A DNA stretch of 62,140 nt, counting the filler, from Bonamia ostreae (Eukaryota): the NCBI GenBank assembly GCA_040357525.1. It is 28 parts of 28 records of this genome, joined end to end, with 100 filler letters (N's around TTAATTAATTAA, not from the genome) between each part and the next. Parts side by side here need not be neighbours in the genome. Positions count along the whole stretch, not along the records: positions 57,835 to 59,939 come from JBDODL010001044.1; 27 more parts are not named here. One strand, 5' to 3'. The position numbers and the translations under genes were made by a program. This document shows, in pieces, positions 13,458-62,140 of the stretch (position 1 is the first letter of the stretch; the number at the start of each line of letters is the position of its first letter). The notes under the pieces were generated by a model that did no database searches, was not told the origin of the DNA, and worked only from the letters and a program-made list of their open reading frames with translations.

Positions 13458-15510
13458 AAAAGAAAAAGATGAAGTTTTCGAGTTCAATCAAAACATCAAA
13501 AATTTGAGAACAAAATATGAACAAAAACAAGAAAAAGCCGTTAATCTCTTTTAAAGATTTAAAAATTAAAATTTGGCTTTTCTAGAAATTACTAAAATCT
13601 GATTTTTTTAAATTTCTCTAAAAGCTAAATTTTAAAGTATCACGGATTTATATTTCCGAGAACGCCGGGAGATGTTGAAAATTGCATTTTAGATTTCAGC
13701 AAGCCATCTCCGACGCTCCAAAACTTAATTTTGGAAGAGAAATTGAAAGATCAATTTACTGTTGTTGTGATAAGAGATATTTTCAAAGAAAATGGAAATC
13801 GATTTATCGAAAGAGAAAAAAGAGAAGATTTAATCAAAAATCTCGCTTCTGTCTATCATTATGTTTTTTTTTGACAATTTTACCTATTTTTTTTACCATT
13901 TTTAACAATATTTTTTGTCAATTTTTACCGATTTTTTAACAAAAACAAAATTATTTTTTTTGTCAATTTTTACCGATTTTTTAACAAAAACAAAATTATT
14001 TTTCGACCATTTTTAGCGATTTTTTATTATAAAAAACTATTTTTTTTGACAGTTTTTACCGATTTTTTTAATAAAAACAAAATTATTTTGTCAATTTTTA
14101 GCGATTTTTAGCGATTATTTAAACAAAATAATTAATCGACTAAATTTTAAGTATTTAAACGGAGTTTTTGGAAAGAGTGCGACTCCAAATCAAAAGCGAT
14201 TTTCACTGAAAAATTTGAAACCAGTTGACATTGAAGTCTCATTTCATGACGATCGTCGTTCGCTCAACGAAATAGTTTAACAAAAAAATTTTACAAAAAA
14301 ATTGCAAATTATAGATAAACTTAAAAACTGTCGAAAACGATACTCAGTCATTAAATCATCGATCGTTTAAAGGAACTCCTTTTAGATTCGAACTTCACTT
14401 GCCACAAAAAGATCCAATTATCGTTTTTATATTAAAAACAAATTTTAGACAAAAATCGAAAATTTTTATTCTCAGAAAAACTAAATTTTAGACAAAAAAT
14501 CACATTTTTATTAAAAAGGGAATAATTTTTTATTATCCGTTCGAAAATGAAGAAGAGACAATTCCGTCTTTGGAAACTATCAAAAACAACGAAGAAAATA
14601 ACGAAAACCAAAATTTATCAAAAAATAGAAAAGATTTTAGAAAAGATACCAATAAAACGGAATTCGATCCCATTTTCAATTGTTTTTGGCAAGGAAGACA
14701 AATTCCTTACGCTAATGTCGCCATGTTTTTTGGATTAATTTTAATATTTATTTTTTCAAATAATTTATTAAAATAAAATTTTATTTTTCGACTAATTTTT
14801 TTTATTTTTCGACTAATTTATTTTAATTTTTGACTAATTTTTTTACAACAAATTTAATTTTTCGACTAATTTATTTTAATTTTTGACTAATTTTTTTACA
14901 ACAAATTTTATTTTTAAACTAATTTATTTCAATTTTTGACTAATTTTTTTACAACAAATTTTATTTTTCGACCAATTTTTAACAATAAAATTTTAAAGTC
15001 TAAAATTTATGATTGGAATAGAACCTTATTTGAGAAAAAGAATAAGAGGAGCACTATTTTTCAACGAAAGTTTTGCAGTGAACCCGAATAAAAATATTTT
15101 CAAAAGCGATTTGAACGAAATTCTTAACGTTCAAGGAGCAAAAGTTATTTTAAAATTTTGATCTATTTTTGCTTTTTGATCTATTTTAAAAATAATCCAA
15201 AATTATCTTTTTTCTTTTTTTTCTAAAAAAATTTTCTAATCGAAAAAGCAAATTTTAATAAATTCTAATTTTTTAGAAACGGTATTTTGATTTTTATTAA
15301 ATTTAACGAAAAAGATTGAAAATAATTGATTTTTACTAAAATTAACGAAAAAAGATTGAAAATATGCTTGACGATTTGAAAGAAGAAAATTCTGATTTGT
15401 TCGCGCGAAAATCGCAAAGACCAATATCAAAATACGAAAAAATGCTTTTCGTCCCAGAAAAACGTTTTCTAATGTGGACCAGACGAATGAGCGAACAATT
15501 TGATAAAGAA
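13458..15510 (+). CDS. SMCHD1-like protein, GHKL-ATPase/transducer region, internal multi-exon fragment
   Basis: Spliced product matches SMCHD1 collinearly: KDQFTVVVI, LASVYHY|YLNG, VDIEVSF, GIIFYYPFENEEETIP, PIFNCFWQGRQIPY, RIRGALFFNESFAVNPNK, FLMWTRRMSEQFDK. The corresponding SMCHD1 blocks are DSFTAVVI, LAHIYHYYIHG, GIIRYHPF, IFECFWNGRLIPY, RISGALF, FALWLKDCHEKYDK. Confidence 0.85.
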
Positions 15511-15763
15511 GTTTTTTGCTAAAAAAACAATTTTATTGTTATTAAAACAATTTAAAAAAAACAATTGAAAGTTACAAAAAAAAAAACTAACCATTACNNN
15601 NNNNNNNNNNNNNNNNNNNNNNNNNNNNNNNNNNNNNNNNNTTAATTAATTAANNNNNNNNNNNNNNNNNNNNNNNNNNNNNNNNNNNNNNNNNNNNAAA
15701 TTTTACGACATTTCGATTGAACAACAAAACATTGCCGTTTTTAAAAATTTTTTGCAATTCGTT

Positions 15764-16469
15764 TTAACAACAAAAAACTTTCAATAAATCAATAAGAGGT
15801 TGCCCTTGAATTCTAATCAGGTTATTTAACGCGTTGAGCGCGGGAAGCACAACGGTCGGCTGCGCCGGGAACACTTTAAGCGACTCCACGATTTCCACAA
15901 CCGTTTTTTCAGACGTTCCTCTAGCGAAATTGTCGTCTTCTGTCATTCTCTCGAGCACGCTGAGAATGGAGCTCGCAAGTTGTTTGTTCTTCGTCCTGTT
16001 GGCCTCGGCCAACGTTTCCCTCAAAACCTCTTCTCCGCCAAGTTCTTTTATTCTATTTTTTCGGAATGAAAAACTTGTCGATATTGGGCGGATATCCGTC
16101 GCAAAGTGCGCGCAACAGATCCGCCACGCGGGCCGAGGACAGCTTGTCTTTGGAGCTCCGCAGTTGTTTGAGGCAGAACTCCACGCCGCCGTCGTCAGCG
16201 ATCTGTTTCGCGTATTCTTTGACGCGGCACGCGGAGATGAGCGGATTGCAGCCTTCGGAGATGATGCGCGGATTGTCTCTGTGCAGTTCGAGAGTACTGA
16301 GAATGGTCGGGAAGGTCTTCTCGCGAGCCATTCTGTCGAGATTCACTCTGTTCTTCGCGAGATGGCCAAAGCAGTTTAAAGTGTAAATGCACAAACGGCC
16401 AAATTTTGGTTTTTCTTTGAGTGCTTTAACCAAAGTTTTGACGTCTTCTTCTCCTTTGTCGAAGCCCAT
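15764..16469 (-). CDS. Armadillo-repeat protein, N-terminal part
   Basis: Helical ARM-like repeats (IADDGGVEFCL; IKELGGEEVL; VEIVESL...ALNALNNL). A 22-nt intron at 16053-16074 restores the frame. Confidence 0.7.
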
Positions 16470-17085
16470 TAGTTTTTTATTGAATTAATACTGTTTTCGA
16501 ATATAATATTATATAGCTGTTTTTTAAGCTTTAAATTTATTGCGATTTTGTAAGCTTAAGATTTGTAATTTGTTTCCAAATGAAGAATCGGAATTTATAA
16601 ATTTAAAATATAATTTTATAAACAATGGAAGATCTAAATCTAAATAATTTAAAGTTTAAAAAATTTATCAGAAAATTATGTGATTGCTTAAAATGAATAA
16701 AAAATGAGATTGATATAAAAGAAAATCAAACAAGGTTTGATCAAATAAAAAAATTTGAAAAACATGAAAAACAAAAAATTTGAACATTTTCAATTTTTAA
16801 AGGGATCATCGTAGATGAAATCGCTGATCATTATAATTGTTTAAAAGATAAAAATTTAAAAAATGAGTAACGGAAAAATCATAACTAGAAATGGTTAAAA
16901 TGCTATCGCCAAACAACATTAATCGTTCTGTATTTCCGCCATTAACAATATCAAAATATCGTTAACGATGGAATTCAGAACGACAAGAAACTCATAACAA
17001 GTCTAATCAATTAAATCCATAAAAAGTCAAATGTTCTCGCCATTCCATTATATGCGAAGCAAATAATATCCAAATTTTGTTTCTC

Positions 17086-17835
17086 ATGTTCCGACAATCT
17101 ATAAAGAACAAAGCTCTTTTCTTTAAATCCGCGACTGCTCTCGGTTGTTCATTTGGAGTCCAAGCTCTTTTTCTGAACTGCGCGTTTGCGGAAGACACGA
17201 AGAAAACGAGAGTTTTCAGTTGGGGCGCAAGCCAATATTTCCAGACTGGTTTGGGGCGCAACAAAGGAGTCTATTCCCCTGAGCCGGTCTCGTTCTTCGA
17301 CGACGTGGCCATAGCCGACATCCAAGCCGGGGGCCAGCAGACCTTCGTTCTCGCCAAAGACGGCAAAGTTTACTCTTTCGGTCGTGGCGACGACGGGAGA
17401 CTCGGCCACGGCGGAGAGGCGAACGAGGTTCTGCCGCGCGTTGTGGAATCGCTTCTGGGCACTAAAATAGCATCCCTGTCCTGCGGCGAAAAACATGTCG
17501 CCGCTGTCACCGAAGACGGGGACTTGTACACTTGGGGAAGAGGGCATTCGGGGCAACTGGGGCGAGACCCGTCTGACTTGCCTCGGAAAGTGCCGGGCAT
17601 GGCCAACATAAAAGCGGTTTCGTGTGGGAAGTTCCACACGGTCGCAGTCGACTCTTCGGGGCGCGTTTTTTCGTGCGGCGAAGGGCGCTCGGCCGCTCTC
17701 GGCCATGGCGACCGCGATTCCAGAGAGCAATTTGAACTCGTCGGGAATCTGAAAGACGTGAAAATAACCGATGTGGCCGCTGGAGAAGATTTCAGTCTTT
17801 TTTTGTCCGAAGATGGACGCCTCTTTTCCTGTGGA
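17086..17835 (+). CDS. RCC1-repeat (beta-propeller) protein, 3' truncated
   Basis: Repeated G..H/T..........GxVYSxG.G..GxLGxG motifs. The basic, acid-free N-terminus resembles a mitochondrial presequence. Confidence 0.9.
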
Positions 17836-17935: not shown

Positions 17936-18167
17936 TGAAGGATGTCCATTCAAAATTTTCAAGAAACAACAAATGGAAAGAACATTGAGAGAATACAAAT
18001 TGAGCAAAAGAGGATTTAGTGACGTAATGGCTAAATTCAATTCTGGAAACTATCAAATTGCTTGCGGCGCTTTATTTCATTATAGCCATCCCGGGAGCGT
18101 TCTAGATGAAATTGCGGTCAATCATCCAAATTATTATTTTGAAGAAAGCGTCAAACTGTCAAAATAA
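17936..18167 (+). CDS. PRIM2: DNA primase large subunit, C-terminal Fe-S domain end (5' truncated)
   Basis: GCPF...NYQIAC..LF...H......VNHPNYYFEES is the PRIM2 C-terminal signature. Confidence 0.85.
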
Positions 18168-18390
18168 ATATTTTACAAATTTTACTTTTTCGACAAAAAA
18201 TAAAAATGATAAAAATTTAAAAATGATAAAAATGTTCTAATAAAACTGATAAAAATTTTAAATGAAAAAATCCACCATTAATGTCAAATTTAGCTTTATA
18301 GAAGTTTAGATTCAGTCAATATAAAAATATTTCTATTTATCAATATACGACAACAATCAAAACTTCAATAAATAATAAAAATTAGCTTTA

Positions 18391-19862
18391 ATGGCGGATC
18401 GAGACAATATAATGTTAAAACAAGAAAACATAAACAATAATATTGAAAAATCGATTTTAGAAGAAAAATTGTCGAAAATGGCGTTAACTTTAAATTACAA
18501 AATTGAAGAGATTTCAAAACTAAAATTTGAACTTAAAAATAAATTTGAAATAAAAATGGAGAATGAAATTAACGGTTATAAGACTGTTTTAAATAAATAT
18601 GAGAATTTGCAGAAAGAAAATCGTGTTTTTAGAAGAACAATAGAAAATTTAAATTTCGATCTAAAAAAATTGACTGACAAAATTGTTGATTTGGAGAATG
18701 AAAAAACGTTTTTTGTTTAATATTTTTAAAATTCGATCGATTTGTCATATATTTCCAACGAAAATCAAAAGTCCGAAAAAATTTAATAAAATTAAAAATC
18801 GAACTAATTTAATCAATTTTCAAAAATCGATCGATTTCTCATATATTTCAACCTAAATCCAAAAGTCCGAAAAATTTGCTAAAATAAAAAAAACTAAAAG
18901 AGCAATAGAACAAAAACAAAAAACAAAACTTTTGAAAACAGAAAAAGATTTGGCAAAAATTAAAAAACAAAATTTAGTTTTAAACGAGAACAGAGAAAAA
19001 TCAAAATATTTTATAAAAAGAGAAAAATTATTATTGTCCAAAATCGACAATTTAAGAAAATCCAATTTTGATTTGAACAAATTAAACAAATCTCTTTTAA
19101 TTAAAAATTGCAAAATTGATGAAAAAATCGACGAAAAAGATTTTTCAAAAAATAAAAGAAAATTTGATAAAACTTGTCAAATTAATGTTTAATTTTCAAA
19201 AATTAAATTTTTTTGAAGATTGAAAATAAAAAGATAAAAGAATTAAAAGAGAAAAAACATAAAAATGATTTATTGGCAAAATATGCAAAAAATAGTCAAA
19301 AATACGAATTGATTTTATTAAAAATTAAATCGATATTTTCAAATTATTCCGATTTTGATTTATTTTTTGACAAATATTTAATTTTGGACAAAAATTCGAC
19401 GTTTTTGTCCAAAAACAATCGTTTTTACAAAAATATGTTTTAGTTTTTTTAAAACAACAAATTGAGGAAATGAAGAACTTGATTTCAGAAGTAAAAATGG
19501 AAAATTTGAATTACAAAGAAAAATTTGCGAAACAGATGTCGGAAATTGAATTAAAAAATGGCGAAAACAAAACTTTGAAAAATAATCTTTTTGTTGCAAC
19601 TGAAAATCTAAAGTTATTAAATGATTTTTTGGTTTTTACTATTTTAATCGGAAAGAGAACATTTGAGACGGACAAAAACAGCGAAAATTTGGGAAAATTG
19701 GTTTTAGAAATAAAAAAATTTTGCGAAAAAGTGCAAAATTTTGATAAAAAAGAAATTGTGAAAATTAGCAATTTTTCGGAAGACAGTTCTGAAGATACTG
19801 AGAAAACTGGCCAAAAATGGTCACAAGAAATTGATAGTGATTCTGTTATTTGTGTTGATTAA
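18391..19862 (+). CDS. Lys/Glu-rich coiled-coil protein, multi-exon, function unknown
   Basis: Successive heptad-like open frames separated by GTTT...AAG/TAG introns. Confidence 0.55.
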
Positions 19863-19952
19863 ATCGATTTTTGTTTTATAAAAGACAATTTTAATAAAAT
19901 TGAAATTTGCAAAGTTTAAAAAATGTAAATTTTGAAAAATAGTCAAAAAAGT

Positions 19953-20051
19953 TTAATTTGTCCAAAGTTTTAGAATTTTGTCTTTCCCTCCAGAAGCAAC
20001 TTTGGATCCGTCCGGGCTCCAATCCACTGCATAAACTTCATCTTCGTGTCC
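19953..20051 (-). CDS. NLE1: Notchless/Rsa4 WD40 protein, last exon
   Basis: [30 protein letters not shown] is nearly identical to the NLE1 C-terminal repeat. Confidence 0.8.
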
Positions 20052-20370
20052 CTTTTTGTTGAAGTTNNNNNNNNNNNNNNNNNNNNNNNNNNNNNNNNNN
20101 NNNNNNNNNNTTAATTAATTAANNNNNNNNNNNNNNNNNNNNNNNNNNNNNNNNNNNNNNNNNNNNCTTACCTCTTTTCCCCGACAGTTTTCACACTTTT
20201 TTATAAAATCAGCTTTGCGAATAAATATCCCACACTGAAACAGATCAAGAAAACTTCTACATTATGGACAGTTTTTTAAATCTAAAAATGTTGTAATGTA
20301 CTCTCTAGATTTTTAAATTTATATTGATACTTTGCGTAGAATACCATTGATTGTTGTATTTTCTGGAATT

Positions 20371-33503: not shown

Positions 33504-35622
33504 GACTTCTAGCTATCATCAATAGAGTTTTAGTGTTGATTTTCGAGTACTGTCTCGATAAGTACTTTATGAACGATGCTTTCTTTCTCATATTGATTGC
33601 GCAGTCATTGATATGGGATTTAAAGGTGAGTTTGTCATCGAATCTAATCCCCAGGTAATTATGTTCTCGTACTATCTCAATGTTGAAGCTGTCAAATTCG
33701 CAAGTCCTGTCGTTTGTTTTCCTTTTTGTGGAAAAGTACATTGCTTTCGTTTTCTCTTTGGACAGGACCAGGCCCAATTCTTCAGCTTTTCTTAGCATAT
33801 CGCGCATATCTGTCTCGAGTGTTGATGTGAGATGATTAACGCTATTTCCATGGGCATAGAGGACAATGTCGTCTGCGTATCCTAGGCTGTTATTGTCGTT
33901 TCTAAGTAGCGGCGCAGAGTATATGTTAAACAGGAAGGGAGATAATGGGCTCCCTTGTGGAACTCCTTTTTCAACCACGTAGTCTCCTTTGATTGACCCG
34001 TTCAGTCTTATTTTGCACCATCTGTCTCCTAGGAAGAATTTCAGGAAACTTATCTCCTTCCTGTCTTCGATAATATTTTCGAGTTTATCGATCAGTATTT
34101 CTCTACGCACCATGTCGTATGCTTTCGTCAGATCTACAAAGATAGCGAGAGTCGATTTTCTTTTATGAAGGTTGCTCAAGATGTCGCTTTTTAACAAATG
34201 AAGCGGTTCTGCAGTCGAAAGTCCTTCGGTGAACCCAAATTGGTTTTTCGGTATGACTTTCGTTAATATGTTCTTCGAGCAAAGTCTTCTTAGCATCAAC
34301 TTTTCAAAAATCTTTCCGATTATTGGCAGTAATGCAATTGGACGCAGATTCCCTGTATTGATTTTTCTGTGTCTTTTTGGAATTGGCACTATTATGGCTG
34401 TTTTCCATTCATCTGGGTACCATTCGCATTCCAACATTTCGTTGAATAGTTCTGTCACGTTTTTTATGGCGAAATCAGCTCCGAGTCGAAGCATAAAGTT
34501 GCAAACTCCGTCGATTCCTGGAGCTTTATTCGTTTTTAGCGTTTTTATGATATTTGTCGTTTCTACAGTATCGAAGTATGTTCGGACACACGTAGGTATT
34601 TTCGGAATTATTAGTCGCTTCTTCTCTGGAGATTTATCATTTTTGATATAGTTGAATTGTCTCGCAATATCTTCACTTTTTATGCTCTCTGGCAGTTTTT
34701 TCATCGATTTTTTCGTACCCAAAATGCAGCGTGTTATTTTATGAAGTTCTGATTCCTTCAGGTTGCTGATCTTGTTCCAAAATTCCTTTTTCGCTTTTCT
34801 ACACTCTTGTCTCACCTTTTTGTTACATTTCTTGAGAAAGGCTTTGTTTTCCGCGGTAGGGTTTTTGTTAAATTCGCGATGAGCTTTGTTTCTCTTCTTT
34901 ATCAGTGATCTTATTGAGTTGTTCCACCATCCACAATAAGCATTGATTTTCGAGCCATTACTGTTGAAGTGGCAAAGTTTTTTGCTTGTGGTCAATAGAG
35001 CTTCTTTGAAGTGATTGTATTTTTCTTTAATATTCATTTTGTCTGTTTTCTTGTAACTGTTTTTAAGTTTTGTTTCGAAGTCTTTTTGTGACACCTTCTT
35101 GAAATTCCACGTTCCGTTCATAATTTGTTTTATTTTAGGAGAGTGGTTGACTTCAGCTATCATAGCTCTGTGATCGCTTCGGAAATTGTTCTGCATTATG
35201 TCAAGTGATTTCACTTTTGTTCCTTGATTCCAAGTGATATAATCGACGGTTGATTTACTTCCTTTGTTGTTTATCAGCGTGAAGGAGTTTTCTGGAATTT
35301 TTGTTTCTAGATTTGCCACTTTCATAAGGTTTTTGAAATTAATCGCCCTGTATTTGGCTCTGTTTCTTCTATCCATAACTTCTGGTGATGAAATTGCTTC
35401 TGGCGTCGTGTTAAAATCTCCAAGAACGATTACTTTCTCGTGTTTAATGAAATCAAGTTTGTCGAGGTCATTCCCACTGTTGTTGGGAGGTATGTATATG
35501 GATATGATCAGGATTTTCGAATGGGTAGTGCTGATGTATGCTCCAACAGCTTCGATGCCCTTCATGTTCGGCAGTTTGCACCTTTTCGATTTAATCTTGC
35601 TTTTGATCAGAATCGCGACGCC
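33504..35622 (-). mobile_element. Non-LTR retrotransposon ORF2 (APE endonuclease + reverse transcriptase), uninterrupted across the contig
   Basis: EN motifs SIYIPP, GDFN, STVDY, SDHR. RT motifs KAPGIDG, RPIALLPIIGKIFEK, QFGF, DLTKAYD, GVPQGSPLSP, YADD, YLG. Confidence 0.95.
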
Positions 35623-36719: not shown

Positions 36720-37787
36720 TTATCTTTCGAGTTTTGAACACAGTTCTTCAAATTCTTTGTTTACAAAGTGGATTCTTATGAAACTGTCTTCTCCGCCTGT
36801 TGCGAGTCTAAACAAAATTTAAAAATTCGAAAAATAAAAATTCGAAAAATTGGAAAATAAAAAAAATGAAATATTTAAAAACGAAAAAAAATTGAAAAAG
36901 AAAATTAGAAATTGATATTTAAAAAATTAAAACAGAAAATGGAAATGACAAAAATTTAAAAATTTGAAAAATAAAAGACAAAAATTTTGAAAAATAAAAT
37001 TTGAAATTTAAAATTTATAAAGTTTGTAAGAAAATTTGAAAATCAAAATTCGATAAATTGGAAAATAAAAAAAATTGAAGAAAAAAATTGAAAAAAACGA
37101 AAAAATTGAAAAAGAAAATTCGAAAAATTGAAATTAAAAAAAATAGAAATATTTAAAAAAAAAGAAAAAAATTGAAAAAAAAAACGAAAAAATTTGAAAA
37201 AGAAAATTAGAAATTGATATTTAAAAAAATAAAACAGAAAAAGGAAATGACAAAAATTTAAAAATTTGAAAAAATGTGATCTGACATTTTTCCTTCGGGA
37301 GACAAAGCGATTTGGTAAATCGGCCCAAAGCTGCTCAGAACTTTTCCTATCAACTTTTCGTTGACAAAGTCGTAAAACAAAAGTTCGAGTTTTCCTTCTG
37401 TCTTGGAAGTCGAAGTGACGTGTAGTTTGTCCTGTCCGCCGCCCAGAACCAAAACGGGATATTGTGGTAACAAAGCAGCGGCTCTGATGGGACGATCTGT
37501 TTTGATATTTTTGAGGATCGTCAATGAGTCGGTCATTAGAACGGTCGCAGAGTTGTCCAGATTGCAAGAAATGAGCAATTTGCCTTCTTTCGCCAAAGTG
37601 AGATTGATTGCGGAGTTGTCAGAGACATTGACGGAATCGACTAATTTGCCGTCTTCGATGGAGAATTTGCGGATGATCCCGTCATCTCCACCGGAAAGAA
37701 TTTGTTTGTCGAGGTTTGTCCAAAGGACGCTTTTGAATGAGGTTTTTTTGTATTCGAGTTCGAATTTTAAGAATGGCTCTGTTGTTT
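36720..37787 (-). CDS. EIF3I: Translation initiation factor eIF3 subunit I (WD40), 3' part; intron 36808-37285
   Basis: VLGGGQDKLHVTSTSKTEGKLE, FGPIYQIALSPEG and ATGGEDSFIRIH match eIF3i. Confidence 0.85.
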
Positions 37788-38672
37788 CTAGAAATTTTTT
37801 TTGTTTTTGAAAAAATGATTTTTGTTTTATTATTTTTTTNNNNNNNNNNNNNNNNNNNNNNNNNNNNNNNNNNNNNNNNNNNNTTAATTAATTAANNNNN
37901 NNNNNNNNNNNNNNNNNNNNNNNNNNNNNNNNNNNNNNNGAAATTTGTTGCGTATTGATCTAATAAACGCTGCAGGTTAACTTGATAAAAAAAAGTCTCA
38001 ATTTTTTAAAAATGTTTTAAATGAAACGCGCGGGTACATACATCGTGTTGCTCAGTACGTATTTGGATCCATATGTATCTTATAGGGGGGGGGGGGGATG
38101 TTCAGAGATAACGGGCACACGTGAAACTTTTTTCACAACCTTGTAATCATAGATAACACGTGTTTTCAAAGAATATAAAATAAATGTTGTTTAGTGATAA
38201 AAAGATTTTTGGGACACTTGGTAACGCTAATTGAGTTTCTTACATAGACACACAAATTAAACACGTGATGTTTTAGGCGCAATTTTCAACTTCAGAATTC
38301 ACGTTCCTTAATTGTATGTGTAAATGTGATTAAGTAAGATTATGTTCCTATAAAAACGATGTTTAGTCAGTAAAACTTTACCGCTCCTTCCAGCCTTGAT
38401 TAAAGCATCGACGTGATTGAAGCTAATTGAATACGAGAGGGTTTTTGTTGTTGTTGTTGGACTAAATGGCTGAACAATACCAAGACAACACGTAAGAATT
38501 AAAATTAAATTAGATATTCTTTTACAATTCATTGTTTTTTTCTTTGAGCAATATTCCCTTTATTTTCATGTAACGATATTCAAAGTAAAAGTCTGATTAG
38601 CCTTTTTATGTTCATAACTTATCAGCAGTTAGAGGGTAATATATTCTTTCATTTATTATTATTAAAATTAGG

Positions 38673-57352: not shown

Positions 57353-57834
57353 TTTGTTGAGCAATCTTAATTCCACTTAAAATTAGTAGTCGTTTTTTGT
57401 CAATTTAGTGGTCGCATTGATGTCAAAAAATATGATTTTTGTATTTGTAAACAAATTGCATTGTTGCCAATAATAAGAATGGGAAACAATGTTTTTTTGG
57501 TTGTACAGATCGTTTTAAATAAAAGTTGCAATGTTTTAAATCAAACAAAAACGAGTCGTTGTTATTTAAAAAAAACGTTTGTTGTTATTTTTATTAAAAA
57601 AAGAATATAAAAATAGGTTTTTGATTTCCAATTTTTTTTTTAGGTTTTATAAAAAAAAAAAATAATATAAAAAAAATTAATATTTAAATATTTTTTGTGC
57701 GGCATAGAAATTTATAAAAATTAAATTTTGTTTTNNNNNNNNNNNNNNNNNNNNNNNNNNNNNNNNNNNNNNNNNNNNTTAATTAATTAANNNNNNNNNN
57801 NNNNNNNNNNNNNNNNNNNNNNNNNNNNNNNNNN

Positions 57835-59847
57835 ATTCTCTTTTAAAATCTTCGTCTTGAACCAATCTGTTAATCTTTAACAATTTTATTATTTTTTCTT
57901 TGACTTCCAACGACAATTCGATCACCTTTACACTTTTATCATCTTCTTTTTCCGACAACGAGATCTCTTCAACTTTGGCTTCAGAAATGTTCATTGCAAG
58001 AGGTTTCCCGCGATAATCGTAAGCCAAATTAAAGTGCACTGTTTGGCCTGGATATAAATCTTCTATTTTGTGTTGTCGGTCGAAGCTCGATTCTTTTTTC
58101 AATTGTAATTTTTGTTCGAAAGTACTTGTAACAATCAATTGTAGTAAACAACAAAAAGCAAAATTTAACCGATAAATTCAACAATCGAGACGGGAACGCT
58201 TTCGTTCGAGTCGGATAATATTTGTTTTAAGTAATAAGCTTTGTAGGAGATTTCGCCTAAAGCTCTTTCGATAGAATGGTCTCCGTCTCGATCACGAGAC
58301 GGGAATATTTGGATAATTTTGCCTGTGCAAATTCCAACGTTCATAATCTTTTTTAAACTTTGTTATTTTGTTCAAATTTTATTATTTTTTGATCAAATTT
58401 TATTATTCTTACAAATTTTATTATTTTTTGATCAAATTTAGAAATTTTCGATCAAAATTTTTTATTTTCGATCAAATTTATTATTTTCGATCAAATTTTT
58501 TATTTTTTGATCAAACTTAGAAATTTTGATTATTGATAAAATTTGTAAAAATCAAATTTGACTTTTATCAAATGATTAATGTTCATTCCGTTTTGAAGAT
58601 GAACATTTGACGCAATATATCTGTTCGTAAAACTACTCCATTTTGATTCAAATCTAACGATATCACCGTGTTTAAACTTTCCCACATATTTTTCCTCGTT
58701 ATTAATAAATATCGGCTCGTCATGATCCGCCGCCTTAAAAATTTATCAATTTTATAATTTAAGAATTTTGAGTTGAACATTTTAAAAAATTTAAAATTAA
58801 CAAAAATTTCAATGTTTCTTTTCTCGCCGTAATTGTTCATAAAATCGCCGTGACCGATTCTCACAATCCCAAAGTTTGGAGACATTTCCTTGCGCAGTTT
58901 TTTGTTTTCTTCTTCTATTCTTCGCCATATAAAATTTCTCGGTCTTTCTTGAATAGTTCTAAGCTTAGCGCGTAACTGATTTATCGTCTTTTTTGCACTA
59001 TTTTTGATTATTTTTTAAAAATATTTTGAAAACTCAATTTAAAAAACACTTTAAGCTCTATGCAAATAAATGCTTAGATAGTTTACATAAAATGACATCA
59101 ACGAAAAGTTTATTATAAACAACTTTTCCAAATTACAAAATTACAAAAGCTTTATTATAATCCAAAAATAAACTATTTTGGCTGATAATCAACTACGTTC
59201 GAAAAAATGTGATTAAGCTCTTGACATTCCGGGCAGTTCGCTTTAAAGCGGTCCGCGAATTCAAAATAGAGCGAATCGATTGTTCCCAAAAGATCGGTGT
59301 CGTGTTGCGAAAAGAAATCGATTCGCTCTCGCGTTTCAGAGGAAAGACTTTTCCTCGGAATCGGAGCCTTCGGCCCAGAATAGTCGAAAGCGTCGACTGT
59401 TCGAGAGGGCATCAAAGACGGGTCCCAGCAACACCAATAAAGGTCGCCGTCTAGATCGCCTCCGCTCATTTCGTCGGAATGCGGACGAGCGCTTTGGCTG
59501 TCCGTCGGGAAAACGAGCACATCGATCAAATGCGCGTACTCGTCCCCGGGATCGACGCAAGTCAAAATTCGCATGTCGCCGGGAGAGTAACAAGGCGTTC
59601 TTCCGACAAGAATTTTGCCGCGGAGAGGGACGGTTTCCCTGTCGGCTCGCGTGGGGCAGAAGAAAACTTGGCCGTACTTGAGTTTTCCGGAGGTGTCTCT
59701 GACGCCGTGGACATTTCTAGATTTGGGCACGAAAATTCTCACTCTTTCAATTTCGTCTCTGCGGCGATGTTTGATTCCAGTCTTGAGATTTTTGGTGAAT
59801 TTTGTCAATTCTTTGATTTTCAGCGATCTCAGTCCTGTAATAACCTC
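57835..59847 (-). CDS. Cellular (RNAi-type) RNA-dependent RNA polymerase catalytic region, apparently spliced to two cold-shock/OB-like domains
   Basis: GVRDTSGKLKYGQVF, VGRTPCYSPGDMRIL, HLIDVLVFP, RPHSDEMSGGDLDGDLYWCCWD. Predicted introns 58998-59173, 58734-58801, 58348-58562 and 58093-58169 keep one frame. The RdRP call is near certain; the fusion is less so. Confidence 0.85.
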
Positions 59848-60102
59848 CTTTTGGATTTTTTATATTTTAAATTAGAAAATGTGCTTTATCAGTAACATAA
59901 AATTTTTTATATTTGAAAATATGAATATCCAAATTTGAANNNNNNNNNNNNNNNNNNNNNNNNNNNNNNNNNNNNNNNNNNNNTTAATTAATTAANNNNN
60001 NNNNNNNNNNNNNNNNNNNNNNNNNNNNNNNNNNNNNNNTAGCAATTTTCGCAATTTGAATAATAAATTAAAAAATTTTGGCATTTTAAAAAAACAAAAT
60101 AT

Positions 60103-60509
60103 TTATTTGAAAATCAAGCTTAACAGAACCCCCAAAATTAGCAACAATCCAAAAATTATAAAATAACGCCCTTTTTTAGTAATCAAAAGAGAATCGATTT
60201 TTTTGTAGATTTTTGTAAATCGCTCATTAAAAACACTCAAATTTTCTGTTGTTTTCTCGAACAATCTAAAAATTCACAAAATTTGCTTTTTACAAATTAG
60301 CTTTTCTAAATTCAGTCAAACCCTTTTTGTTCATTAATTTCCACTCCAATGTTCTCAGACATGTCGCTAAGACGTTTGACGCAATCGGTCATCGAATCTA
60401 AAATTTTGTCTTCGCCCATTAATTCAATGTTCTCCTCTTTTTCGACTTCATTCGACATATCAGACGAATCCGATAAATCAAGTTTACTGTATTTTGAATT
60501 TTGAACCAT
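60103..60509 (-). CDS. Small Qc-type SNARE (Bet1/syntaxin-6/8-like) with C-terminal TM anchor, 2 exons
   Basis: EDKILDSMTDCVKRLSDMSENIGVEINEQ SNARE motif; tail RYFIIFGLLLILGVLLSLIFK*. Confidence 0.8.
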
Positions 60510-60714
60510 TTTTAAAGCTCTATTGCAATATATCGCAACAACCTAATGTTCAACAATAAGACGATCGAACATAATAGATCTTTTTAGATGTTTTTTATAT
60601 AATAAATTAAAAATGCCAGACATTAATTATCACTATAAATGTACACAAATATTTCAAATCAGTAAAAATTTACATCATAACATTCCAATATAATAGTTTA
60701 AGCTCTTATTCTAA

Positions 60715-61198
60715 ATGGGCACAGAATATTATTTCTGTGACTACTGTTATACAAAATTTCCATCGACCACAAAAAACAGAAAACAACACTTTTCGTCAAA
60801 AAACCACAAAGAAAGACGGAAAAAATGGTACAACCAATTTTTAAGTTTTTAAAATTTTAAAAATGGCCAAATTTTTAGCCGAACAAGATATAAAATTGAT
60901 CGAACAAGCTTTTGTTAGACCGCAACAATGCCCAAAAAACACGAAAAATAACTGCGACGATCCATATTGCCTGTTTCGACACGGAGAACGTTATTCGATA
61001 AAAGAACAAGTTCGGAAAATGTGGCTCATCAGACAATTGCAGAATTCGCCAAATTTGGCCGAATGGAAACCCGTTTTGAAATTTGGTCAATTGCCCAAAA
61101 AATTTATCGAGTTTTGCAGAAATGTTGAAAACGAAGAGATTTTAGCGATTTTGGGGCGTTTTGATATTGAACATTTTATAAATTCATTTTTTTATTAA
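60715..61198 (+). CDS. ZMAT5: ZMAT5 (U11/U12 snRNP 20K)-like protein: matrin/U1C-type zinc finger + CCCH finger; intron 60845-60878
   Basis: MGTEYYFCDYC.......KNRKQHF....H......WY..F followed by C-x7-C-x4-C-x3-H. This compares with ZMAT5 MGKRYFCDYC...NRKKHL...H.....WY..F...C..C..C.F.H. Confidence 0.75.
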
Positions 61199-61200
61199 AT

Positions 61201-61992
61201 TTAATGATCGTCATCTCCGTCGCCCGGACATTCATTTTTCAGATTTTCGAAATTTGAAAACTTTCTTACGCAATAAACACAATAAAAATATTTTTTTCGC
61301 AAATGGCCGATCAAGTTTTTCATCTTTTTTAAGATTGATCAAAAGTTTAATCGAAAATGATTAAAAAAACTGAAAATAAAAGTTTGTCCAAATTCAAATT
61401 TTCCACAAAATCTTCGATTTCTCCATCCTCGGAATTTTCGTTCCATCCAATTATCTCTGCAAGATTTTCATTATCATCGCAATTTCCTAAACTCGTTCTT
61501 AAACCATCTAATATTCGAAGAAACTTCAAAAACTGCCTACTCGTTTCCGTCTTTCTGTGTTTTTCTTGCATAAGCAACCGGAAATCTTCTTTTTTGCTAT
61601 CTTCAAAAATCGTCTTTTCTGAGATGATAAAATCGGTTTTATCGTTTCGACTGAGATGGCCCAGTCCATCCTTGATCCTTTTTCTGATATAAAGAGGAAT
61701 TGGATTCTGTTTTCCCTGCTTCTGTTTGCCTAATCCTTTTCCTTCTCTTTAAATGGAGATGAAAAAACTGATATCCCATTTTTGATAAAAGTTTGTGACC
61801 GATATTCGTTTTGGGAATTTTCTTTGACAATCCTTTTATTCTGTTTTCTTCTTCAATCTTTCGAATCGATTTTTTGAAATTTTCGGCCGATTTTGTTTTT
61901 CGCCCAAATCTTTTAGCGCTTTTAGCGATTGTTCTGTCGTCGAAATTCAAGAACATGTCTGACATATAATCGATTTCCACTTTTTCAGACAT
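61201..61992 (-). CDS. GPATCH11: G-patch domain protein 11 (CCDC75)-like; 22-nt intron 61747-61768 plus a further intron
   Basis: DYMSDMFL, NIGHKLLSKMGYQ|EGKGLGK and C-terminal HLRKKYFYCVYC...L..ECPGD....H*. Confidence 0.85.
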
Positions 61993-62140
61993 TTTCCGAC
62001 AATTAACTAACGATTTAAAATATAATTAAAAGTTTTCCGCGGTTTATTGGATTTTGTTAAAATTCGTAAACTTTTAAAATGAGAGTTTTAAATGTTGCGG
62101 AAAAGCCGTCTGTAGCGAAATCCGTTTCTTCGATTCTCAG

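Follow-up and report, generated by a model that had tools for sequence, protein, structure and literature searches.

A Bonamia ostreae gene fragment joins an RNA-silencing-type RNA-dependent RNA polymerase to a tail with cold-shock likeness

The stretch of DNA analyzed here (the window, 62,140 bases from the Bonamia ostreae assembly GCA_040357525.1) consists of 28 contigs chained artificially from the longest (2,144 bases) to the shortest (2,101 bases) and separated by a spacer of the form N44-TTAATTAATTAA-N44 (e.g., 57735-57834 and 59940-60039). A single contig of this chain, 57835-59939 (2,105 bases, guanine-cytosine content [GC] 0.345), carries on its minus strand a fragment of a gene for RNA-dependent RNA polymerase (RdRP), truncated at both contig ends, 59939 and 57835. 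Our reading, to which we assign a probability of roughly 0.75, is that the contig holds the middle of one spliced gene whose product, soon past the last polymerase motif, would pass into two beta-barrels of the cold-shock/S1 kind, without the neck-3 helix and helical head. No further piece of the gene was found elsewhere in the window, as the four matches obtained at E ≤ 1 all lie on 57835-59939. Because the contigs were joined artificially, the genes that stand beside this contig in the window are not its genomic neighbors.

Polymerase core and exon-intron structure

The gene is predicted from its sequence to encode a cellular RdRP of the RNA-silencing type. Scored against the Pfam profile PF05183 (582 positions, cutoff 23.8 bits), exon 1 reaches 166.7 bits (E 1.2e-48) over profile positions 304-531, and P0041, a library protein, reaches 97 bits. 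The match of the contig begins only at profile position 304; P0001, a Logan-contig protein that ranks as the RdRP frame's best relative in the database, spans positions 37-547. Residues 264-729 of P0001 align to residues 469-941 of the 1133 residues of Arabidopsis RDR2 with an E-value of 3.3e-51, and P0001 matches Neurospora QDE-1 with an E-value of 4.5e-15. The catalytic DLDGD motif is intact in the product of the window.

The RdRP frame (59859-59176, minus strand, 228 residues) closes at a TAG at 59175-59173. An earlier note on this DNA had proposed that the apparent stop overlaps a GTTTAT donor and that splicing to the AG at 58998 keeps the frame, and both proposals were borne out: the G of the TAG at 59173 is the first base of the donor and, after the AG at 58999-58998, the frame continues in phase from 58997. 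Removal of four GT-AG introns yields 496 codons with no stop. The same note had placed three further introns, which correspond to introns 2, 3, and 4, all of them GT-AG; its placement needs one correction, since homology puts the acceptor of intron 3 at 58348. An alternative acceptor for this intron, CACAG at 58323, lies 240 nucleotides (nt) from the same donor; from the sequence read by eye it would be out of frame, and it was rejected. Exons and introns differ sharply in composition, with GC of 0.33-0.49 and 0.12-0.23, respectively. Upstream of exon 1, the AT-rich stretch at the contig end is probably the end of a further intron, with a candidate acceptor AG at 59849-59848 that was placed by eye. 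As an observation on splice-site style, a pyrimidine occupies position +3 in all four donors: GTTTAT (59173), GTTAAT (58801), GTCAAA (58562), and GTTAAA (58169).

The junctions were placed with the help of two proteins. A tblastn comparison of P0001 with the contig gave five collinear minus-strand blocks, covering P0001 residues 487-707, 697-776, 778-834, 836-891, and 903-973 at identities of 65, 50, 42, 36, and 33%, with E-values of 7e-96, 4e-31 (two blocks jointly), and 1e-10 (two blocks jointly). A local alignment of the spliced product with P0001 486-973 contains few short gaps, none of which falls at junctions 1 and 2. P0041 is identical at 315 of 316 residues to residues 96-410 of the spliced product, so junctions 1-3 agree with those of a publicly available gene model of this contig; P0041 lacks intron 4 and reads on into a stop. 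The coordinates of all features are collected in Table 1.

Table 1. Features of the RdRP gene fragment on contig 57835-59939, in window coordinates
Feature	Position	Strand	Remarks
AT-rich stretch upstream of RdRP exon	59848..59939	-	cut by contig end; P0001 similarity begins 59856
Exon 1, RdRP core	59174..59847	-	PF05183; 65% identity to P0001 487-707; frame open up to 59859
DLDGD catalytic motif	59443..59457	-	residue 135 of translation; aligns with RDR2 DLDGD via P0001
Intron 1	58998..59173	-	176 nt, GTTTAT...ATAG; GC 0.19; AATAAA at 59156 and 59114
Exon 2, RdRP tail (NFIW) and first half of module 1	58802..58997	-	one open stretch; 50% identity to P0001
Intron 2	58734..58801	-	68 nt, GTTAAT...TAAG; junction common to P0041
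Exon 3, second half of module 1	58563..58733	-	42% identity to P0001 778-834
Module 1, whole	about 58882-58563	-	exons 2 and 3
Intron 3	58348..58562	-	215 nt, GTCAAA...AAAG; junction common to P0041
Minisatellite, 20-nt AT-rich unit, ~8 copies	58355-58515		inside intron 3
Exon 4, first half of module 2	58170..58347	-	36% identity to P0001 836-891
Intron 4	58093..58169	-	77 nt, GTTAAA...AAAG; located from collinearity with P0001
Exon 5, second half of module 2, linker, and LOTUS start	57835..58092	-	33% identity to P0001 903-973
Module 2, whole	about 58344-57974	-	exons 4 and 5

The tail downstream of the polymerase

Besides P0001, the tail has relatives in a pair of database proteins. P0002 (EukProt 490266_1), an RdRP of 696 residues with 51% identity, terminates just past the NFIW motif, and P0042 (507 residues) starts where P0002 ends, with 33 of 38 aligned residues identical in the overlap. 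P0042 runs through modules 1 and 2 and continues into an OST-HTH/LOTUS domain, a Gly-rich stretch, and a CCHC knuckle. The two look like fragments of one gene and, on this sequence evidence, would represent a further species with the same architecture.

The likeness of module 2 to cold-shock domains was seen at the level of both sequence and predicted fold. A profile built from the alignment of the window product with its homologues (A1), run against the sequences of the PDB, returned seven matches at E ≤ 10, of which the top three are cold-shock domains of Unr/CSDE1 (6y6m_A, 3.5e-4; 4qqb_X, 0.029; 1wfq_A, 0.67); the remaining four are unrelated (E 0.84-1.8). With exon 5 alone, chain 6y6m_A of Unr is the one PDB match at E ≤ 10 (E 0.085). 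These sequence matches span the last two strands of the cold-shock domain only. An AlphaFold model of P0042, calculated from five alignment rows, has a mean predicted local distance difference test score (pLDDT) of 46.1 and gives medium confidence for module 2, which appears at residues 139-227 as five strands and one helix (block means of pLDDT 48-76). When this model was compared with the PDB by Foldseek, the list of matches consisted almost entirely of cold-shock and LOTUS domains. The first rank went to human UNR CSD1 (1wfq; E 1.7e-3, target template-modeling [TM] score 0.60), and Drosophila Unr 4qqb_X (target TM 0.69), CspA (0.71), CspE, CspB, and CRHSP-24 were also found, the cold-shock matches having E-values of 1.7e-3 to 3e-2 and target TM scores of up to 0.77. 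In cold-shock domains, strands 2 and 3 carry the aromatic RNA-binding motifs RNP1 and RNP2. The predicted strands 2 and 3 of P0042 have one aromatic residue each, and no sequence alignment spans them. Taken together, we predict with fair confidence that module 2 is cold-shock-like.

For module 1, a cold-shock/OB character is only suggested. Exon 3 matches the Pfam family OB_DEPS-1_3rd (PF24339) with an E-value of 0.0079 and 16.4 bits, and P0041 matches it with an E-value of 0.071 and 13.3 bits, both below the cutoff of 27. In Caenorhabditis elegans DEPS-1, the match falls within the third OB fold, on its last strands, and at these scores the window protein is not a member of that family. A literature search for DEPS-1 together with OB-fold returned nothing. 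The earlier note had read both modules as cold-shock/OB domains; for module 2 this agrees with the PDB profile and Foldseek results, and for module 1 it goes no further than these weak leads.

Beyond module 2, the LOTUS domain and the CCHC knuckle were observed in the homologues. P0042 matches the Pfam OST-HTH/LOTUS family (PF12872) with 24.7 bits (cutoff 23.8), and its LOTUS model (pLDDT 67-87) is matched in Foldseek by the LOTUS domains of Oskar, TDRD7, and TDRD5 with target TM scores of 0.70-0.81 and root-mean-square deviations (rmsd) of 1.4-2.0. The corresponding region of P0001 aligns with that of P0042 in A1; P0001 itself has no Pfam LOTUS match at E ≤ 1. The zf-CCHC knuckle scores 31.8 bits in P0042 and 12.1 bits in P0001, the latter below the cutoff of 20.8, and P0001 has in addition an N-terminal MYND finger (26 bits, cutoff 22.7). 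In the window, exon 5 holds from about 57910 the first ~25 residues that A1 aligns to the LOTUS domain of the homologues, and its frame is open at the contig end. Judging from these sequences, the order in the full protein is most likely MYND (in P0001 only), RdRP, cold-shock-like modules 1 and 2, LOTUS/OST-HTH, a linker (Gly-rich in P0042), and CCHC. The earlier account of the tail had recognized the modules and had missed the LOTUS, CCHC, and MYND domains of the homologues as well as the contig ends.

In the sequence, the modules appear where RDR2 has its head. Passages of the RDR2 preprint (10.1101/2021.08.31.458351) give the order past the second barrel as bridge helix, trigger loop, neck 3, and five-helix head, and state that truncation of the head abolishes silencing, that the head tip may guide the template, and that the function of the head is still unclear though genetically required. 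In the product of the window, the first residues of NFIW and of module 1 are 250 and 268, respectively; as only 14 residues lie between them, there is no room for the ~190 residues of neck and head, and the neck-3 helix and helical head of the RDR2/QDE-1 architecture were not found. Traced through P0001, the likeness to RDR2 extends no further than residue 941 of 1133, and past NFIW the P0042 model has, at low confidence, one helix followed by strands. A replacement of the head by the tail modules, as the earlier note had put it, thus fits the sequence, except that the break does not come right after VVD: about 30 more residues still belong to the RdRP. As a separate observation, the related RdRPs P0003 and P0005 (~800 residues) have ~220 residues past NFVW with neither a Pfam match nor similarity to the RDR2 head.

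A number of results weigh against our reading. All junctions follow from homology and from one gene model, and that model, P0041, may be an ab initio prediction. The window shows no LOTUS, CCHC, or MYND domain of its own because the contig ends first. For the barrels, Pfam CSD (PF00313) is matched by none of the four A1 members at E ≤ 10; hhalign of A1 against Escherichia coli CspA gave a short, sub-significant alignment (21 columns, P 0.051, probability 1%); and no Foldseek match of the P0042 model to the PDB reaches E ≤ 0.001, the cold-shock alignments extending over 90-117 columns at an rmsd of 3-7.6. Module 1 has a pLDDT below 50 both in the P0042 model and in the AlphaFold model of the P0001 tail, the latter unusable (four rows, mean pLDDT 36.7); with a family of three members, structure prediction is weak. 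The hhalign match of module 1 to module 2 covers an equivalent strand over 18 columns with an E-value of 0.019 and a probability of 2.5%; its language-model neighbors in the Atlas are S1/CSD clusters at 0.77-0.84, a range that shuffled proteins often reach; and an Atlas feature search with P0001 745-935 gave no usable match. Lastly, P0003, a related RdRP without the modules, also loses its similarity to RDR2, at residue 934, so that the argument on the head rests on space and not on absent similarity.

These results allow an alternative explanation, in which the fusion is accepted and neither module binds RNA as a cold-shock/OB fold: the modules would have a protein-binding or structural function, either as small barrels of another type or as what is left of neck and head after strong divergence. 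The unmatched Pfam CSD, the hhalign probabilities of 1-2.5%, a module 1 that never folds confidently, and sequence matches that are all limited to the last two strands speak in its favor, as does the helix that the P0042 model places between strands 2 and 3, which is not its usual place in a cold-shock domain. We nevertheless consider this explanation unlikely, as two independent routes take module 2 to the same family, with Unr cold-shock domains as the top three of the seven profile matches on the one side and Unr, CspA, CspE, CspB, and CRHSP-24 as the non-LOTUS part of the Foldseek list on the other. Moreover, every Atlas match of module 1 with an assigned Pfam family belongs to the S1/CSD type, and the portion of the OST-HTH paper considered here (PMC2848206) reports other eukaryotic proteins in which a LOTUS domain is fused to OB folds of the S1/cold-shock type.

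One gene, its rarity, and its surroundings in the window

The RdRP and the tail are joined in one gene, a fusion proposed in the earlier note and supported at the sequence level by four independent lines: the P0001 open reading frame (ORF), the junctions of P0041, the RdRP profile across junction 1, and the content of exon 2. P0001 has 1091 residues on a contig of 3438 nt and is therefore a single uninterrupted ORF, which holds the RdRP and both modules. The PF05183 match on P0041 crosses junction 1 and extends to profile position 554, while that of exon 1 alone ends at 531. Exon 2 by itself (58997-58802) encodes the NFIW-bearing tail of the RdRP together with module 1's first half, which makes the link between polymerase and tail independent of intron 1.

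Alternatively, the locus could give two products, with translation of the RdRP stopping at the TAG (59175-59173) and polyadenylation falling within the AT-rich stretch, and with the cold-shock/LOTUS protein encoded by a separate downstream gene; or a truncated isoform could exist beside the fused form. The TAG does close the frame, AATAAA hexamers follow 17 and 59 nt further downstream, and P0002 and P0042 are present in the database as a split pair. We regard such an arrangement as quite improbable. The two hexamers in intron 1 are unremarkable because 0.42 are expected from composition, and the members of the split pair overlap over 38 aligned residues, as fragments of one gene would. In addition to the uninterrupted P0001 and the reach of the RdRP profile, the start of exon 2 matches the conserved RdRP tail of P0001 and P0002 and leads, still open, into module 1, and this exon's first in-frame Met, from the sequence read by eye, lies downstream of the conserved tail. 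That the locus is a contaminant, a chimera of the assembly, or a pseudogene in decay, and makes no functional protein, is the least probable explanation and hardly credible, for although the contig has merely 2105 bp with both ends cut, all four donors carry an unusual pyrimidine at +3, and a search with an eIF3I fragment of the window gave no match at E ≤ 0.001, the locus keeps 496 stop-free codons in DNA of 65% A+T, an intact DLDGD, 33-65% identity to P0001 along all five exons, and a sharp contrast in GC between exons and introns, and genes on the next contig show, by eye, the same style of donor.

The fused architecture is very rare. The earlier note had called for a search for it, and when the P0001 tail was run by HMMER exhaustively against 1.84 billion representatives, three proteins matched, P0041, P0042, and P0043. 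The last of these (419 residues, E 7.5e-6) was rejected on inspection, being a secreted-looking repeat protein of acidic beta units. Among these representatives, the tail architecture occurs, beyond the window, in two other sequences only, and a word-index search with P0001 residues 745-1000 among near lengths returned P0001 itself only. Because of this rarity, the architecture would be easily overlooked in surveys that count the RdRP domain alone. A quick maximum-likelihood tree of 41 RdRP rows unites the window, P0001, and P0002 in one clade, with a Shimodaira-Hasegawa-like approximate likelihood ratio test (SH-aLRT) support of 100; this clade adjoins one that includes the RdRP-helicase protein of Dendronephthya and is separate from the plant RDRs and from the RdRP-helicase proteins of fungi. 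The tree program flags long branches, that of P0002 included.

The other contigs of the window were surveyed as well. Their GC ranges from 0.23 to 0.43, and the contigs may be of mixed origin. The GC-richest contig, 15698-17835 (0.429), has an RCC1-repeat frame at 17023-17835 (E 5e-50), and 13458-15597, among the GC-poorest, has an SMCHD1-S5-like frame at 14492-14773; contig 17936-20066 was grouped with these two in the observation on GC contrast. A 706-codon open frame that spans the whole contig 33505-35622 on the minus strand carries Exo_endo_phos_2 and RVT_1 (E 3.2e-33) and, from these endonuclease and reverse transcriptase domains, is a non-LTR retrotransposon. The eIF3I fragment at 37261-37839 (minus strand) is fairly diverged, with 95 bits against mammalian and 91 bits against yeast eIF3I over ~170 residues in the PDB, and its word-index search yielded 343 candidates, none of them at E ≤ 0.001; this divergence hints at a fast-evolving lineage. 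By eye, contig 60040-62140 holds SNARE-like and G-patch-like genes with donors GTTTGA and GTTTTT (about 60310 and about 61765), and the G-patch-like gene has an intron of maybe only ~22 nt. Rfam gave no match in the window at the gathering score, and ARAGORN gave no tRNA.

Relation to known systems and possible role

The polymerase is an enzyme of a known kind, and its predicted cold-shock-like/LOTUS/CCHC tail is new. P0001 and the P0002/P0042 pair fall in the same RdRP clade as the window and share with it NFIW, module 1, module 2, and the linker, which in these homologues are followed by LOTUS and CCHC; P0001 and the window are 65% identical over the RdRP and 33-50% identical over the tail. 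They differ from the window in belonging to other organisms, in that P0001 is intronless on its contig, and in that the copy of the window is incomplete; the MYND finger occurs in P0001 only and the Gly-rich linker in P0042 only.

Among cellular RdRPs, N-terminal RRM/PH modules are known, and so are fusions to a helicase. Arabidopsis RDR2 (7eu0, 7roz) and Neurospora QDE-1 (2j7n) have, like the window protein, a two-barrel catalytic core with DLDGD. RDR2 continues into neck 3 and a five-helix head and has N-terminal RRM and PH-like domains, whereas the predicted tail of the window protein consists of beta-barrels. Fusions of an animal or fungal RdRP with a UPF1-like helicase, comprising P0010 of Dendronephthya gigantea, proteins of Trichoderma and Xylaria, and Branchiostoma BL02069, provide the nearest RdRP cores outside the three-member clade (39-47% identity). 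They resemble the window protein in carrying an RNA-handling module C-terminal to the polymerase, but this module is a superfamily-1 helicase ~700 residues downstream and not a set of barrels, LOTUS, and knuckle. As covered in part of the main text of Pinzon et al. (PMC6396948), Branchiostoma BL02069 is an RdRP with an AAA_12 domain, and no other extra domain is named there. The covered part of the main text of Nowell et al. (PMC7943196) reports an expansion of RdRPs in bdelloid rotifers and gives no RdRP domain architectures. A bdelloid origin of the window was judged unlikely, since dozens of paralogues would then be expected and the tail scan gave three matches.

On the side of the tail, Unr/CSDE1 and Lin28 are comparable in that the best sequence and fold matches of module 2 are cold-shock domains. 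A cold-shock domain with a CCHC knuckle is the arrangement of Lin28 and of plant CSPs. Neither Unr/CSDE1 nor Lin28 has a polymerase, and the module of the window is without identified canonical RNP1/RNP2 and without a Pfam CSD match. LOTUS/OST-HTH proteins (Oskar, TDRD5, TDRD7, MARF1, and C. elegans MIP-1/2 and LOTR-1) share the LOTUS domain seen in P0042, while the window copy has only the first residues of this domain. According to titles and abstracts, LOTUS domains recruit and activate Vasa in germ granules, and binding to G-rich RNA is also named. The OST-HTH paper, in the portion considered (PMC2848206), mentions RNA-dependent RNA polymerase once, in connection with bacterial genes without a conserved neighborhood with it. 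Neither there nor in related titles and abstract openings did we find a LOTUS protein with a polymerase, and the titles and abstract openings retrieved gave no description of an RdRP with a cold-shock/LOTUS/knuckle architecture.

A mechanism can be proposed from these likenesses. The two barrels and the knuckle would be the polymerase's own grip on single-stranded RNA (ssRNA), as in Lin28 or Unr, and this grip would hold or select templates at the place that in canonical RDRs is occupied by the head, facing the template cleft. In a germ-granule-like particle, a Vasa-like DEAD-box helicase or G-rich RNA might then provide the site at which the LOTUS domain docks the enzyme. In nematodes, template capture, granule recruitment, and synthesis are spread over RdRP, helicase, Tudor, and LOTUS proteins. 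It is a tentative suggestion, and we hold it with considerable doubt, that a lineage of RNA-silencing polymerases gave up the head and that a Lin28/Unr-like ssRNA grip and a Vasa-docking LOTUS domain couple template capture, granule recruitment, and complementary-strand synthesis in one polypeptide. The prediction that follows is that the tail binds ssRNA and a DEAD-box helicase.

If true, this would point to RdRP-driven amplification of small RNAs in granules outside nematodes, plants, and fungi. A head position taken by RNA-binding barrels would offer a direct handle on the function of the head, and the succession of barrels and LOTUS would show how templates might be chosen.

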